Assembly: GCA_965248535.1 (NCBI GenBank)
Contig: CBDFJR010000005.1
Location: 928,001 to 992,000 of the forward strand
Direction: 5' to 3'
DNA: 64,000 bases
Source of the DNA: Phormidesmis sp.
GTDB taxonomy: Bacteria; Cyanobacteriota; Cyanobacteriia; Leptolyngbyales; Leptolyngbyaceae
This document shows positions 3,925 to 7,031 of this stretch, piece after piece; position 1 is the stretch's first letter; each line of letters opens with the position of its first letter. A program made the position numbers and the translations under genes. The notes beneath the pieces are model-generated. The model was not told the DNA's origin. It worked only from the letters and a program-made list of their open reading frames with translations, and ran no database searches.

Positions 3925-4084
3925 AGTTAAAATCACCTTCATTAAATAGCTCTATTATAAGGCTTCGTCAGTCACAATCAGCACCAACAGAGGCTTTTTA
4001 GACTACTGCCCCAACCAACAGCCTGAGCCGCTGAACGTTCCGGTTGAGCGGTGACAAACCGAACTGGAACGAAGTGCAAAAGCT

Positions 4085-4622
<538 letters not shown>

Positions 4623-4640
4623 TTAGCAGTTAATTCTTCC

Positions 4641-4883
4641 TCAGTTAGCTTCAGGATAAGTTTCCTCTTTACGTATGACTTTAGCAAAACGTCCTGAAGT
4701 CCGCTCAAACAGAACGTCAAATTCACTATTTGGCATCCTCAAATCAATCGGAACTTCTTGAACAGGAAGTACTTCTTGACCGCCATCGTCCGCCAGTCCA
4801 ATACCAGCACAGAGAATTACCGTAATTTCTCCGTCTCGCAAACAGCCCAGAACTCTTGCTGGATAACGCCAGTATTTAGACAT
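4641..4883 (-). CDS. Small hypothetical cassette protein
   Basis: 80-aa ATG ORF, first in its cassette, same strand as its neighbours. Confidence 0.6.
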   Translation of the reverse strand: MSKYWRYPARVLGCLRDGEITVILCAGIGLADDGGQEVLPVQEVPIDLRMPNSEFDVLFERTSGRFAKVIRKEETYPEAN

Positions 4884-4954
4884 TTTCGGCAGCCCAAAAT
4901 ACTTGAAACTTACAAGCAGCTTCTAAACCACTAGCACAACCCGTAAACGAAGCA

Positions 4955-5740
4955 GGCTAACGCATTGTTGTGCGGCGGCAGATAAGCTTGGACTCTCACC
5001 GATAAGCTCTGTTCCGTCCGCACCAACGCATTGTGTACGCCCAGCATGGGTGTGAACTAATGGGGTGAAAGTCCCCTGTCGGAGAACCAACGTCCAAATG
5101 ATCCCAAAAGATCCGAGTGACGACAACGACTAGCTTAAGGTAAGGGCGTTTCCGCGAGGAAGGGTCTGAAGGAAGCCAGCGGCAAATCTGCGAGCTGACG
5201 GACAGAAACGTCATAGAAGGCTGAGATTCCTGTGGCAAGTGAGCACAACATCATGAAGCCTTTTGGTTCAGGGAACACAGTAAATGACGCAGTTGTGCAG
5301 AGACAGTTCACGTTCTTATCTGGGGAGATCTGCTCAAAGGGCGGTCTGAGGGTCTACGGGAGTCTGATTGAGGTCTAGCGGGAAACGGCTAGGGAGCCAC
5401 GGAACCCTAAGGACATTCAGGCAGCGTGAGTCATGGCAACAGGACTCATGATTGAGCAGAAGTCAGCAGAGGTCATAGTAGCCAAACACTCACCGTAATG
5501 GGTGAGACAGGGTGAAGGGCTGAACCTTAGAAAGCAGGGAGGAGTTGCAAAGCTCGACTGGGCGATGAACCCGAACGGGGGAGCTATTTTGTCGGCGCTT
5601 AACTGCACAACCAGCCCTGGATATTCAGTTCTATTGAACTGGCTTGTCTAAAACTTTTCTGGGGACGCGCCCCGTGCGGAGCCGCACGCGGGGTGCCGTG
5701 GGGACTGGGGGAGAAAATCCCCTGGTTACCCGATTGGGCT
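4955..5740 (-). other. attC-like site 3, interrupted by a group II intron
   Basis: GGCTAAC-GCATTGTTGTGCGGCGG...CCGTCCGCACCAACGCATT-GT (4955-5034) plus TGGGC (5735-5739); removing 5035-5734 restores GTTGGGC. Confidence 0.85.
5035..5734 (+). mobile_element. ORF-less group IIC (IIC-attC type) intron
   Basis: 5' end GTACGCCCAGCATGGG; motifs GGGGTGAAAGTCCC, CAGAAGTCAGCAGAGGTCATAGTA and GAAGGGCTGAAC; short domain V with CGC triad (about 5666-5697); domain VI ending ACCCGAT; no RT ORF. Confidence 0.88.
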
Positions 5741-5746
5741 GCGCCG

Positions 5747-6130
5747 CTACATGACGCTGACTGGATAAGCACGGACTGCTGCATCTACCGTCGCAATGGT
5801 CAAGCCGTTTTGTAATGCTTGGCAGATTAGCATCCTGTCAAATGGATCACGATGTAATGGCGGCAGTTTAGCCAGTTGAAGCACACTATTTTCATTAAGG
5901 TCAAGACTGGCAATCTGATGAAGATTGCGCTGTTTGGGCAAATACGTTTCGGGATGCTCCGGCAAAGGTAGCTTGCCCAACTGATATTTGACAATCGCTT
6001 CCCAGACTGAAATTGCGCTTAGATAGACCTCGTTGTCTGGATCGCGAATGGCATCTCGAACATCTGGTAACAACTGGGTATCCCCACTGATGAACCACAA
6101 GAAGATATGTGTATCCAGCAGAATTCTCAT
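5747..6130 (-). CDS. vapC: VapC PIN-domain toxin
   Basis: MRILLDTHIFLW..S..SVWE..K..LGKL..HRDPFDRMLICQA. Confidence 0.93.
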   Translation of the reverse strand: MRILLDTHIFLWFISGDTQLLPDVRDAIRDPDNEVYLSAISVWEAIVKYQLGKLPLPEHPETYLPKQRNLHQIASLDLNENSVLQLAKLPPLHRDPFDRMLICQALQNGLTIATVDAAVRAYPVSVM

Positions 6131-6366
6131 TTGCCCTCAAATGCACGGAGAAGATCTTCCGGCAAAGGAGCATCGAAATTATCTGGCACGGTAAACGCTC
6201 CTGCACACAAACCGAATGGTCGCAGCTGCTTACCGCTTGATGAGATCGGTCTTAATTCGGCGATCGCTTTATCTGCTTGAACAATCACAATTGTTTGACC
6301 TGCCTCCACTTGGCGCAGATACTTTGAAGGATCGCGCTGAATTTCATCAACTGTCACACTTAGCAT
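6127..6366 (-). CDS. Phd/YefM-family antitoxin
   Basis: YLRQVEAGQTIVI..IAELRPI..RPFGL..VPDNFDAPLP; 4-bp overlap with vapC. Confidence 0.9.
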   Translation of the reverse strand: MLSVTVDEIQRDPSKYLRQVEAGQTIVIVQADKAIAELRPISSSGKQLRPFGLCAGAFTVPDNFDAPLPEDLLRAFEGK

Positions 6367-6374
6367 AAAAAGCC

Positions 6375-6854
6375 TCAGTATAAGCTCAAGGGATAATACT
6401 CTGCTTGATTCAATTGTATATGATGAGTCGTATGCTCCCAGCTAGGATGCGTCTTGAATCCCAACTTCTGATAAAACTCGGCGGCGGCTGGGGTATCGGT
6501 TCGCAACGTCAATAGTTGGTAATGCTGCTTGGCTACGTGAATAAGCTGAGTGACCAGCAAACGTCCCACTCCACGCTTCCGCCAAACTGCCTCAACATAC
6601 AAGTGTCGCAATCTACCAACTTTAGAATCATTCAAATATGGATCTTGATTCAGCCCACCGATTCCAACTATCGCACCGTGTACCGAAGCTGTAAGTAGGA
6701 TTTCACCAGACCGATCAAAGCAATTTAAACCACTACGGTACTCTCGAATCAGTCTTTCAACGAACCAAAACCCCTGGGATAAACTTTCCTCAGCGAGATG
6801 ATGAATTGATTTTGAGTCAAGCTCTGAAATGTGAGCGATCACAATCTGTTGCAT
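6375..6854 (-). CDS. GNAT N-acetyltransferase
   Basis: GIGGLNQDPY..GRLRHLYV..WRKRGVGRLL..FYQKLGF; start placed at ATG 6854 because the longer ORF runs into the attC. Confidence 0.88.
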   Translation of the reverse strand: MQQIVIAHISELDSKSIHHLAEESLSQGFWFVERLIREYRSGLNCFDRSGEILLTASVHGAIVGIGGLNQDPYLNDSKVGRLRHLYVEAVWRKRGVGRLLVTQLIHVAKQHYQLLTLRTDTPAAAEFYQKLGFKTHPSWEHTTHHIQLNQAEYYPLSLY

Positions 6855-6943
6855 GAGCCTTGAGAGAATATTGCAAGATTCGATCTTAGCTTTGAATCCC
6901 GACAAGTAAAACTGAAAGACAATCACAGCCAAAAATTCAAGCA

Positions 6944-7031
6944 GCCCAACGACCCCGTTCACCCACCGCTAGTAAACTATCGGATTTACCAACCAACTTC
7001 ATTCGGTCGGTGTGCAACGGGATTGTTATGC
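6944..7031 (-). other. attC-like recombination site 2
   Basis: GCCCAAC-GACCCCGTTCACCCACCG...CGGTCGGTGTGCAACGGGATT-GTTATGC; 6 bp past the stop of the 7038-8249 gene. Confidence 0.88.

Follow-up and report, generated by a model that had tools for sequence, protein, structure and literature searches.

An ORF-less group IIC-attC-type intron in the R'' box of an attC site of Phormidesmis sp., and its family in filamentous cyanobacteria

Results

Host cassette and insertion site

The window analysed in this study is the whole stretch of 64 kb, to which all positions refer unless another contig is named. At 5035..5734 on its + strand lies an ORF-less intron of the group IIC-attC type, 700 nt in length and with the ends GTACG...CCCGAT. 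It splits the attC of a cassette on the - strand (5747..6962), which encodes a PIN-domain toxin (5747-6130; Pfam PF01850, 6.5e-12), a Phd/VapB-like antitoxin (6127-6366; PF02604, 1e-4, not reaching the Pfam cut-off) and a GNAT acetyltransferase (6375-6962; PF00583, 4.5e-14); the NCBIfam matches of the cassette proteins (TIGR01552 and NF050009) were weak. Since the flanking cassette genes are all on the - strand, the intron is antisense to the cassettes, as an earlier note on this DNA had stated.

The 5' exon (4944..5034, + strand) is an attC bottom strand, matched by the attC profile in nhmmer with E 9.3e-18. It comprises the R' complement GGCTAAC (4955-4961), an imperfect bulged stem-loop and the IBS1 TTGT (5031-5034), and its DNA fold was calculated at -22.0 kcal/mol, with the bulges on the 3' arm. 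The 3' exon starts (5735..5739, + strand) with the IBS3 T, followed by GGGC. The junctions are therefore TTGT (5031-5034), intron, T (5735) and GGGC, and the GT at 5033-5034 joined to the 3' exon gives GTTGGGC, the bottom strand of the R'' box. The same attC was found uninterrupted in 7 of 9 homologous PIN/antitoxin cassettes from other genomes (...caccaacgcattgt|tgggctgcgc...), and thus the insertion is precise. These data agree with the earlier placing of the intron at TTGT/T directly after the attC stem-loop, with GTTGGGC restored on excision. The same note had the intron inserted exactly into the attC core; the exact insertion into an attC stands, but the split box, in the bottom-strand reading, is R'', the inverse core on the gene side, and not the R' core at which cassettes are cut (PMC7923331). 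R'' is the known insertion point of IIC-attC introns (PMC7923331), and the features by which their target is defined in PMC7923331 and PMC3001079, namely the R'' of an attC bottom strand, TTGT/T after the stem-loop and an orientation opposite to the cassettes, are all found here.

A neighbouring unoccupied attC-like site of the same array is located at 4023..4117 (+ strand; nhmmer E 1.5e-10; ...ccggattgttagctg). No integron integrase was found in the 64-kb window. The region 4600-6000 was scanned with a simple sigma-70 consensus, which is crude and not tuned to cyanobacteria; the scan showed no outward promoter inside the intron. Its single site (- strand, 5913-5885) lies outside the intron and is at chance level (shuffle mean 0.9), leaving an outward promoter Pout as in S.ma.I2 unsupported. 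No terminator-like site was found in the scan of the same region.

Ribozyme domains

Rfam identified the segment 5035-5734 as a complete group II ribozyme (RF02001, RF01998 and RF00029). At gathering thresholds, RF02001 (group-II-D1D4-3) matched 5148-5314 on the + strand with 127.8 bits and RF01998 (group-II-D1D4-1) matched 5425-5520 on the + strand with 63.7 bits, and these were the only matches in the whole window. A more permissive Rfam run added RF00029 (domains V/VI) at 5665-5734 on the + strand (43.5 bits, the gathering score being 40; E 4.7e-07), the match stopping precisely at the proposed 3' end of the intron, 5734. The ends of the RNA, GUACG and AU, have the GUGYG-like and AY form of group II introns, and of the six-domain architecture the D1 core, domain V and the bulged A of domain VI were all identified. 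The Rfam scans that the earlier note had suggested thus bear out, together with the terminal sequences, the boundary motifs and the domains V and VI described there.

Domain I (5040..5324, + strand) was delimited from the RNAalifold consensus and pair counts; it is closed by the helix 5040-5044/5320-5324 and contains the RF02001 match. The EBS1 loop, GCACAACA (5243..5250, + strand), is the 8-nt terminal loop of a D1 hairpin in the RF02001 alignment; its ACAA (5245-5248), already proposed as EBS1, is complementary to the IBS1 TTGT, and the loop was unchanged in 9/9 aligned family members. Domains II-III (5325..5520, + strand) contain the RF01998 match, and compensatory changes occur in their helices 15-21, both sides of helix 19 being changed in 6 of 9 pairs. 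Domain V (5667..5696, + strand) consists, by the RF00029 alignment, of a 9-bp lower helix, a 2-nt bulge, a 3-bp upper helix and a tetraloop, with CGC at the position of the catalytic triad; pairing in its helix 31 reaches 100%, and 2 of the pairs are compensatory. Domain VI (5699..5732, + strand; RF00029) includes helix 32, with 4 compensatory pairs, and leaves the A at 5728 (alignment column 760) unpaired; at 7 nt from the 3' splice site, this A is the candidate branch point.

Domain IV is reduced to a stub of about 140 nt (5525..5664, + strand; alignment columns 544-696) with a closed basal stem. The longest + strand ORFs in the intron are of only 48, 49 and 40 aa, and the intron thus contains no RT; nor was PF08388 or PF00078 matched at the locus. 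The RT/maturase ORF that autonomous mobile group II introns carry in domain IV is therefore missing, as the earlier note had recognised, the length given there for the remaining segment (about 130 nt) being slightly short. Within the stub, a Shine-Dalgarno remnant, GGGAGGAG, is present at 5537-5544 and a remnant RT start, ATG, at 5565-5567, with the first codons ATGAACCCG.ACGGGGGAG; positions 529-549 of the mini-intron match the N-terminal RT codons of full-length introns at 90.5%. Among the domain IV helices, compensatory change affects 3 pairs of helix 22, and helix 25 shows no variation. The idea that this conservation reflects a conserved small peptide was ruled out by 1-nt indels in the remnant ORF (copy L008 of this genome, G000, and the copy in genome G047), and is also contradicted by helix 25, in which both strands are invariant, third codon positions included. 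In other group II introns, the intron-encoded protein (IEP) binds mainly to the region that is retained here in the stub.

Copies in the genome and occupancy of attC sites

Eight ORF-less copies were found in G000, six of them identical over 700 nt, one at 99% and decayed, and one at 85%. The decayed copy (C2:609290) has small deletions and a degenerate attC. Seven of the eight copies, and the full-length relative described below, lie behind attC-like bulged hairpins; seven are preceded by TTG(T/C) and one by ATGT. As the copies follow different attC-like hairpins and have different flanking cassettes, they represent independent insertions and not segmental duplications. An intron is present at 8 of the 33 attC-like sites in the genome (nhmmer E<1e-3), the mini form at 7 and the full-length intron at 1; among the other 25, which are empty, the majority end ...TTGTTA.... 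An example of an empty attC in this genome is the site at C2:1135054-1135151. Two integron integrases are encoded in the genome (467.9 and 466 bits; the cut-off is 265), and 3 mini copies are located less than 5 kb from integron integrases. Introns were found both in integrase-bearing arrays and in attC clusters without an integrase, that is, in both integron and CALIN contexts.

The family in other cyanobacteria and conservation of its structure

Copies of about 700 nt with the same domain IV junction were identified in five further genomes (G010, G014, G047, G007 and G015). G010 carries 9 full mini copies which differ by 0-4 nt, and additional 5'-truncated copies in which the 3' junction is kept; several of its sites have an imperfect IBS1 (TAGT, GTGT). 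The form of about 700 nt was also present in 14 public contigs, assigned to Leptolyngbyaceae, Oculatella, Stenomitos, Phormidesmis, Kovacikia, Pantanalinema and Leptolyngbya. Identity between genera is 74-87%. One family member, L073 in a Stenomitos record, follows a non-attC hairpin at the site CTGT|T. Decay products were represented by L010, a 130-nt internal fragment, and by L047, an internally deleted derivative in G047.

Covariation was analysed on 9 sequences from 6 genomes, for which RNAalifold gave a consensus of 204 pairs. In these, 98.1% of cells were paired, compared with 93.3% in shuffles, and 48 of the 204 pairs showed a compensatory change, compared with 20.5+/-2.9 in shuffles, none of 500 shuffles reaching 48. 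When partners were slid, only 5-14 pairs remained changed on both sides. Near-identity of the copies within a genome, combined with 74-87% identity and compensatory changes between genera, bears the mark of selection on a functional RNA.

These results exclude both of the readings that the earlier note had named as fatal to its own. The intron is not a lone dead remnant, as there are eight copies in the genome and compensatory changes maintain the helices of domains I-VI across the 9 sequences analysed from 6 genomes. The six identical 700-nt copies in this genome, and the recurrence of the same domain IV stub in other genomes and in the 14 public contigs, rule out that an RT-bearing intron was misassembled.

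Relationship to the IIC-attC introns of class 1 integrons

Target site, ribozyme and RT tree support the assignment of the mini-intron lineage to the IIC-attC introns of class 1 integrons. The ribozyme aligned with 4/4 class 1 integron introns, at 68-71% identity over D1-D3 and 73-79% over DV-DVI; in blastn against the intron between catB3 and qacEdelta1 of a class 1 integron, positions 1-510 of the mini form matched at 68% and positions 634-700 at 79%. This integron intron shares the ends (GTACGCCCAGCATGGG...CTACCCGAT) and the TTGT|T site. One Methylocalor plasmid intron also aligned over most of D1-D3 and DV-DVI, and the other IIC-type introns (10/10) gave ribozyme stretches of at most 92 nt or none. 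The ribozyme thus shows the homology expected of the IIC-attC lineage.

The RTs of 4 full-length cyanobacterial relatives grouped with 4 class 1 integron RTs in 100/100 bootstraps, apart from 10 other RTs, in a BLOSUM62 neighbour-joining tree (not maximum likelihood) of 19 sequences and 441 columns; this tree is a proxy, the mini-intron having no IEP and the sequence set no curated reference of named IIC and IIC-attC IEPs. The tree and the ribozyme comparison were used in place of RT identity, which was rejected for marking the class: integron-borne RTs are matched at 52%, and this value does not discriminate, because an Anoxybacillus RT (51.6%) and the GsI-IIC RT (446 bits) are similar.

RT-encoding relative and state of the cognate RTs

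A full-length RT-encoding relative, which the earlier note had listed among the things to look for along with further ORF-less copies, is present in the same genome as a single intron of 1998 nt inside an attC (G000:C2:1673018-1675015). Over positions 1-447 it shares 79% identity with the mini form, and it diverges in the D3/DIVa region, so that recognition of the mini form by its RT is an assumption. In the assembly this RT, the sole group II RT, is frame-broken by a duplication into ORFs of 172 and 325 aa; the only other RT in G000 is of the retron type. The apparent duplication in the RT ORF measures 68 nt and is accompanied by an extra GCG (C2:1673800-1673950). In contigs of three public runs (X1, X2 and X3), position 834 of the relative joins to 923 across the duplicated segment, with 17 letters between and a net change of -71 nt. 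By frame arithmetic, this joint restores one RT ORF of about 444 codons, and the X1-X3 contigs show that this organism, or a strain nearly identical to it, has an intact cognate RT. Depth over bins 801-960 of the RT locus is low in X1-X3, and the contig joints, not missing cover, were used here.

Mini-intron copies matched at 90% likeness are the probable source of two further joints in X3 (374 to 1928 and 445 to 513), which were set aside. Loose ends at 1998 resembling an empty attC were dismissed as evidence of insertion polymorphism, since they are accounted for by paralogues within G000. An RNA metatranscriptome run (X9) contains a full-length intron 94% alike, which may be DNA carry-over and was not counted as a sign of expression.

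In the other genomes, about 8 kb of IS genes interrupt the cognate RT of G010, which also contains a TGA, that of G014 has 3-4 stops, only a 52-aa fragment matched the cognate RT in G047, and the RT of G002 (same genus) has 1 stop. Group II RTs of other classes, 30-39% identical, occur in G010, G014, G015, G047 and G007. With the cognate RT dead or not found in the other genomes holding the mini form, the copies may be stranded in some hosts.

Discussion

We infer with good confidence that the mini-intron is an ORF-less IIC-attC derivative which, in line with the earlier note, most probably moves by retrohoming as a non-autonomous element, using an RT provided in trans. An ancestral IIC-attC intron would have lost nearly its whole RT ORF by one deletion in domain IV, which would have left the ribozyme (domains I-III, V and VI) and a structured 140-nt stub with the Shine-Dalgarno sequence and the first RT codons. 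The RNA would be transcribed from the strand opposite the cassettes, spliced and packaged by the RT/maturase of a related full-length intron, and reverse-spliced into the folded bottom strand of another attC, right behind the bulged hairpin. Targeting would depend on pairing of EBS1 ACAA with IBS1 TTGT and on the T at +1, and the DNA copy would be made by the same RT. Identical copies at independent sites, and the 5'-truncated G010 copies with their 3' junction, are indirect signs of a splicing and retrohoming that would depend on an RT in trans.

The introns might conceivably move without their cognate RT, either with a heterologous RT (from another intron class, a retron or a defence system), or with a host polymerase after reverse splicing by the ribozyme alone into single-stranded attC. 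Near-identical copies have arisen in bursts in a genome with a destroyed cognate RT (G010), RTs of other group II classes or of the retron type are present in these genomes, and protein-free full reverse splicing into ssDNA was demonstrated in vitro with another group II intron (PMC11754743). This route is nevertheless very improbable, as the conserved stub with the ribosome-binding and start region of the RT suggests continued dependence on the cognate protein, an intact cognate RT is found in contigs of three runs, and the RT genes could have been inactivated after the bursts. The broken or missing cognate RT in G010, G014, G047 and the G000 assembly, and the existence of decay products (the C2:609290 copy, L010 and L047), would also fit inert deletion relics multiplied at the DNA level by cassette duplication, integrase shuffling or attC recombination and never mobilised as ORF-less RNAs. 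We regard this as very improbable: all copies share one domain IV junction yet have different attC arms and neighbouring cassettes, which neither repeated independent deletions nor duplication together with the flanks can explain, and relics would hardly combine near-identity within genomes (six copies at 100% in G000, nine with 0-4 differences in G010) with 74-87% likeness and compensatory base-pair changes between genera.

It is also conceivable that the host keeps the insertion because it disables the attC, fixing the toxin-antitoxin/GNAT cassette or insulating transcription. The GT is parted from the TGGGC of the R'' box, so that, on the attC model of PMC7923331, the integrase-bound R''/R' duplex cannot form as in an intact site, and S.ma.I2 impedes read-through from Pc (PMC3001079). 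A lock on the cassette through its split attC, as suggested in the earlier note, would be plausible. Domestication as the reason for its retention, however, is very unlikely, given insertions across many unrelated cassettes and solitary attC sites, the absence of the intron from 7/9 homologous cassettes and a simple sigma-70 scan with no outward promoter in the intron.

Compared with the IIC-attC introns described in PMC3001079 and PMC7923331 (S.ma.I2, E.c.I7 and Kl.pn.I1-type; Leon, Quiroga, Centron and Roy), the mini form belongs to the same ribozyme lineage, with identical terminal motifs, the same target (TTGT|T in the R'' box of an attC bottom strand, directly after a bulged hairpin), the same orientation opposite to the cassettes, and occurrence in attC arrays with and without an integrase. 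It differs in having no RT/maturase, the 140-nt domain IV stub replacing about 1.3 kb, in the lack of an outward promoter detectable by the simple scan, and in its hosts, which are filamentous cyanobacteria, whereas the IIC-attC introns of integrons are found in Proteobacteria. With canonical class C introns of the GsI-IIC type it shares insertion after a hairpin with a short IBS1, and the GsI-IIC RT is, among solved structures, the one closest to the RT that the full-length relatives encode. Class C introns that insert behind terminators differ in showing no extended nucleotide similarity in the ribozyme, which applies to all ten non-integron introns compared, and in an RT group that excludes the RTs of the cyanobacterial relatives in the tree.

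The closest parallel in life style is given by the TeI3 introns of Thermosynechococcus elongatus (Mohr, Ghanem and Lambowitz 2010, PMC2882425), where 17 ORF-less introns derive from one DIVb deletion, keep DIVa and are mobilised in trans by 'driver' RTs. Like the mini form, they go back to a single ancestral domain IV deletion with ORF-start remnants and DIVa kept, outnumber the RT-encoding copies, and live in a cyanobacterium with related RT-encoding introns in the same genome. They are of a different structural class with no attC targeting, recognise their targets by long EBS/IBS pairings and not by a DNA hairpin and 4 nt, and are confined to one species, while the mini form spans several genera at 74-87% identity. 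Mobilisation in trans (by TeI4 'driver' RTs) is experimental for TeI3; for the mini form it is proposed from sequence.

Bacterial group II introns without an ORF are described as rare and short-lived in a 2015 review (PMC4424553), and IIC-attC introns as described in the cited literature all encode an RT. We tentatively raise the possibility, which we would rate below even chances, that the mini-introns form an old, cross-genus, SINE-like lineage of gene-less IIC-attC introns which arose by one ORF deletion and has outlived its autonomous partners. Such a lineage would have diverged to about 74% identity with the ribozyme and the protein-binding domain IV stub kept, would pass through repeated many-copy bursts in filamentous cyanobacteria, within chromosomal integrons and at solitary attC sites, and would persist in several hosts with a dead cognate RT.

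A natural IIC ribozyme of about 700 nt with a defined DNA-hairpin target is usable for studies of splicing and targeting. A compact ORF-less IIC-attC family with a conserved structure and many copies over several cyanobacterial genera would be, for ribozyme retroelements, the bacterial counterpart of the SINE/LINE or MITE/transposon pairs. Each insertion splits an R'' box, which should fuse neighbouring cassettes and alter read-through, and the abundance of the introns could affect the fixing and reshuffling of chromosomal cassette arrays in cyanobacteria. If the SINE-like history is true, these introns would be a major shaper of cassette arrays, each insertion disabling an attC.

Anatomy and identity of the intron

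A group II intron RNA gene was located at 5035-5734 on the + strand, with the termini GTACG...CCCGAT. Only two Rfam matches were obtained at curated thresholds in the 64-kb window, RF02001 at 5148-5314 (127.8 bits) and RF01998 at 5425-5520 (63.7 bits), both on the + strand. A permissive Rfam run added RF00029 (domains V-VI) at 5665-5734 on the same strand, scoring 43.5 bits against a gathering score of 40, and the 3' limit of this match coincided exactly with the proposed 3' end of the intron. An RT ORF was absent, the longest + strand ORF within the intron being no more than 49 aa, and neither the maturase model PF08388 nor PF00078 (RVT_1) matched at this locus. The earlier note had described an ORF-less group II intron here and had proposed an Rfam scan; the three matches and the short ORFs bear out that description.

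Domain IV was found to be reduced to a stub of ~140 nt (5525-5664, +), in which the family alignment revealed a Shine-Dalgarno remnant, GGGAGGAG (5537-5544, +), and a remnant RT start ATG (5565-5567, +) followed by the first RT codons. Positions 529-549 of the mini-intron, as we call the ~700-nt form, matched the N-terminal RT codons of full-length relatives at 90.5%. The window intron belongs to a genuine family of IIC-attC introns that are non-autonomous and well preserved.

Insertion into the attC site

The last four bases of the 5' exon are TTGT (5031-5034, +), and T (5735, +) opens the 3' exon. Upstream of the intron lay a hairpin, imperfectly paired and bulged on the 3' arm (DNA fold -22.0 kcal/mol), preceded by GGCTAAC (4955-4961, +), and joining of the exons gave GTTGGGC. 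Relatives were searched using the 3' flank (PIN/antitoxin genes) and nine loci were fetched, seven of which carried the same attC without the intron (...ccgtccgcaccaacgcattgt/tgggctgcgc...); in the remaining two the upstream sequence was different. The restored attC is therefore more than an in-silico construct, and the proposed insertion at TTGT/T after the attC stem-loop, with GTTGGGC regained upon excision, was upheld. The PIN toxin gene (5747-6130), the Phd/VapB-like antitoxin gene (6127-6366) and the GNAT gene (6375-6962) are all on the - strand, so that the intron is antisense to the cassettes, as had been claimed, and occupies the attC bottom strand.

The box split by the intron is R'' (the inverse core beside the gene), with the bottom-strand reading GTTRRRY. 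An attC box is thus interrupted, as the earlier note had it, but the term 'core' needs qualifying, since the box is not R', where the integrase cuts. Passages of two papers report that IIC-attC introns insert at R'' with the consensus TTGT/T (PMC7923331; PMC3001079). The EBS1 loop GCACAACA was invariant in the family alignment and its ACAA pairs with TTGT, in agreement with the complementarity suggested before; at some sites in G010, a genome from another genus within the same family, TAGT or GTGT is found, and only 2-3 EBS1/IBS1 pairs would form.

The PIN/antitoxin cassette with its attC (window 5735-6400; fetched loci L098-L106) was present at 80-86% identity in at least nine other cyanobacterial genomes, in which its surroundings differed; judged from these comparisons, this toxin-antitoxin cassette has travelled widely. 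Because the insertion parts GT from TGGGC, R'' and R' can no longer pair into the duplex of an intact attC, and a locking of the cassette by the intron is a reasonable prediction from the split R'' box. An outward promoter has been described for the S.ma.I2 intron; a crude promoter scan gave no sign of one in the window intron.

Copies in the Phormidesmis sp. genome

Ten matches to the 700-nt intron were found in the 5.03-Mb genome (5 contigs). That the intron is no lone remnant was evident from six identical full copies, a 99% copy that has suffered several small deletions and follows a degenerate attC, and an 85% copy of 698 nt. The other two matches were to a full-length intron of 1998 nt, whose first 447 nt are 79% identical, and to a 130-nt internal fragment. 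This fragment (contig C2:378132-378261; locus L010 1501-1630, -) is 88% identical to mini-intron positions 443-572, runs from the end of D3 into the domain IV stub and is surrounded by unrelated sequence. Every full copy had its own attC-like hairpin upstream and different DNA downstream, and the copies therefore represent separate insertions. Insertion at attC R'' in the bottom strand is both precise and repeated.

An nhmmer profile of the insertion sites detected 33 attC-like sites (cut-off E<1e-3). Eight are occupied, the mini form sitting in seven of them and the full-length intron in one; the other 25 are empty and for the most part end in ...TTGTTA.... Two integron integrase genes (C2:161487-162425 and C2:1131581-1132513) scored 467.9 and 466 bits against an NCBIfam cut-off of 265. 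Three mini copies lie less than 5 kb from the integrases (attC sites ~0.7-4.6 kb away) and are oriented against the direction expected for cassettes; the window copy lies in a cluster without an integrase.

Distribution across cyanobacterial genera

Among 61 genomes searched (this one and 60 relatives), 22 gave some match to the intron. G010 carried nine complete ORF-less copies of 698 nt, 0-4 nt apart. The mini form has multiplied in recent bursts. Complete ORF-less forms were also found in G014 (717 nt) and in G047, from another family (743 nt). The copy in G007 is cut by a contig end (positions 1-662 present), and that in G015 begins at position 58, with unrelated sequence before it. Further G010 copies begin at 180, 283, 362 and 606 and retain the 3' junction with the attC half-site, a pattern that fits incomplete reverse transcription, with later deletion as the alternative. 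A derivative in G047 (L047, C9, locus 1501-1797 and upstream), in which ~25 nt of the 5' end are joined to positions 415-700, sits at an attC (…cagtgt/); it is missing most of domains I-II and presumably no longer alive.

A pattern specific to the domain IV stub was searched in a species-representative genome collection and found 14 stretches, in records titled Leptolyngbyaceae, Oculatella, Stenomitos, Phormidesmis, Kovacikia, Pantanalinema and Leptolyngbya. Eight aligned to the window intron over 1-700 and one over 8-700; three were the same contigs as the loci fetched from G014, G007 and G015. The five loci with both ends located by end motifs measured 696-717 nt. In four of them the upstream hairpin is attC-like and ends TTGT; the fifth follows a hairpin of another kind, with CTGT at its end. 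This fifth locus (L073, locus 371-1069, in a record titled Stenomitos frigidus ULC18) is a 699-nt member at CTGT/T, whose upstream hairpin is not attC-like (gtttaggcaa...ttgcctaaac); judging from this site, hairpins other than attC are open to the family, as they are to class C introns. As all members have one common domain IV junction, the ORF was lost once.

Selection on the intron RNA

An RNAalifold consensus of nine sequences from six genomes contained 204 pairs in 32 helices. Paired cells amounted to 98.1% (93.3% in shuffles), and 48 pairs were changed on both sides, compared with 20.5+/-2.9 in shuffles, none of 500 reaching 48. Sliding the partner by 1-3 columns gave 5-14 such pairs; the consensus was derived from the same nine sequences and is thereby favoured over this control, but the excess is nevertheless large. 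Compensatory changes occurred in domain I (helix 12, 7/10 pairs), domains II-III (helix 19, 6/9), the stem at the base of the domain IV stub (helix 22, 3/10), domain V (2/12) and domain VI (4/14). The pattern of substitution indicates that the RNA is under selection, and the ribozyme is complete and conserved without an ORF.

Helix 25 and the SD/ATG region of the stub are invariant though non-coding. A conserved peptide from the domain IV remnant was considered and is disfavoured by frame-shifting indels in two members. We infer an RNA function for the stub, most likely RT/maturase binding, to judge from DIVa in other group II introns.

Relationship to integron introns

The intact 444-aa RT of a full-length relative in G035 (P0001) scored 396.8 bits on TIGR04416 and 446 bits against the GsI-IIC RT. 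It was ~52% identical to RTs encoded within class 1 integron arrays, where blaIMP/catB3/qacG2 cassettes of opposite orientation flank them, and 51.6% identical to an Anoxybacillus intron RT, so that RT identity was rejected as a class marker. The mini ribozyme aligned over most of D1-D3 and DV-DVI with all four integron-borne introns and likewise with a Methylocalor plasmid intron, whereas ten of ten other IIC-type introns gave stretches of at most 92 nt or none. The terminal motifs and TTGT/T site are also those of the integron IIC-attC intron. In a neighbour-joining (not maximum likelihood) tree of 19 RTs (441 columns, 100 bootstraps), four cyanobacterial RTs, the Methylocalor RT and the four integron RTs formed a clade at 100% support, with the remaining ten outside. 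These comparisons demonstrate kinship, at the sequence level, with IIC-attC introns.

No description of an ORF-less IIC-attC intron was found in a full-text literature search in which subscription journals were thinly covered, and a prior mention is possible. 'ORF-less' occurs only within a reference title in PMC3001079 and refers to cassettes in PMC8876359; PMC8919778 mentions an increase of ORF-less introns in certain genomes, giving no detail.

Candidate source of the reverse transcriptase and proposed mobility

The sole group II RT of the Phormidesmis sp. genome is in the 1998-nt intron (C2:1673018-1675015), which is also within an attC, at TTGT/T. In the assembly, an imperfect tandem repeat of ~70 nt (~786-932 of locus L011) and an extra GCG divide its ORF into pieces of 172 and 325 aa. 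Contigs from three public sequencing runs, X1 and X3 of one study and X2 of a second, showed 0-2 differences from the RT locus over long stretches and lacked the repeat, 834 being joined to 923 with 17 letters between; by frame arithmetic, the net -71 nt restores a single ORF of ~444 codons. Either the break arose during assembly, then, or it is peculiar to the strain. The runs are not independent of the assembly, as one may be its source. The other RT of this genome, of 373 aa (C2:2381292-2381930; L013 1309-2430), is retron-type and not group II (NF042941, 360 bits; NF038237, 334 bits; both below cut-offs), and a 279-aa ORF adjoins it.

In G010, the cognate RT (L107, C1:2200900-2211300) is split by ~8 kb holding IS4/5, DDE_Tnp_4, IS21 IstB, rve and recombinase ORFs, with a TGA in the 3' part; in this genome of nine near-identical mini-introns, the RT is genuinely dead. 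G014 had cognate RT fragments with 3-4 stops, the sole match of G047 to the cognate RT was a 52-aa fragment, and the RT of G002 (same genus; L022), 87% identical to P0001, had one internal stop at codon 240. The RT was intact in G035, G018 and G016.

Mini-intron RNA would be transcribed from the strand opposite the cassettes, spliced with the assistance of a maturase and reverse spliced into attC DNA in its folded, single-stranded form. The hairpin, EBS1/IBS1 and the T at +1 would guide this last step, after which an RT supplied in trans would make the cDNA. Mobilization by an RT in trans was demonstrated for the TeI3 introns of T. elongatus, which likewise have no ORF (PMC2882425). The family is a new form within the already known IIC-attC intron kind and, since the RT is broken in several hosts, the mini form often outnumbers and outlives its autonomous partner.
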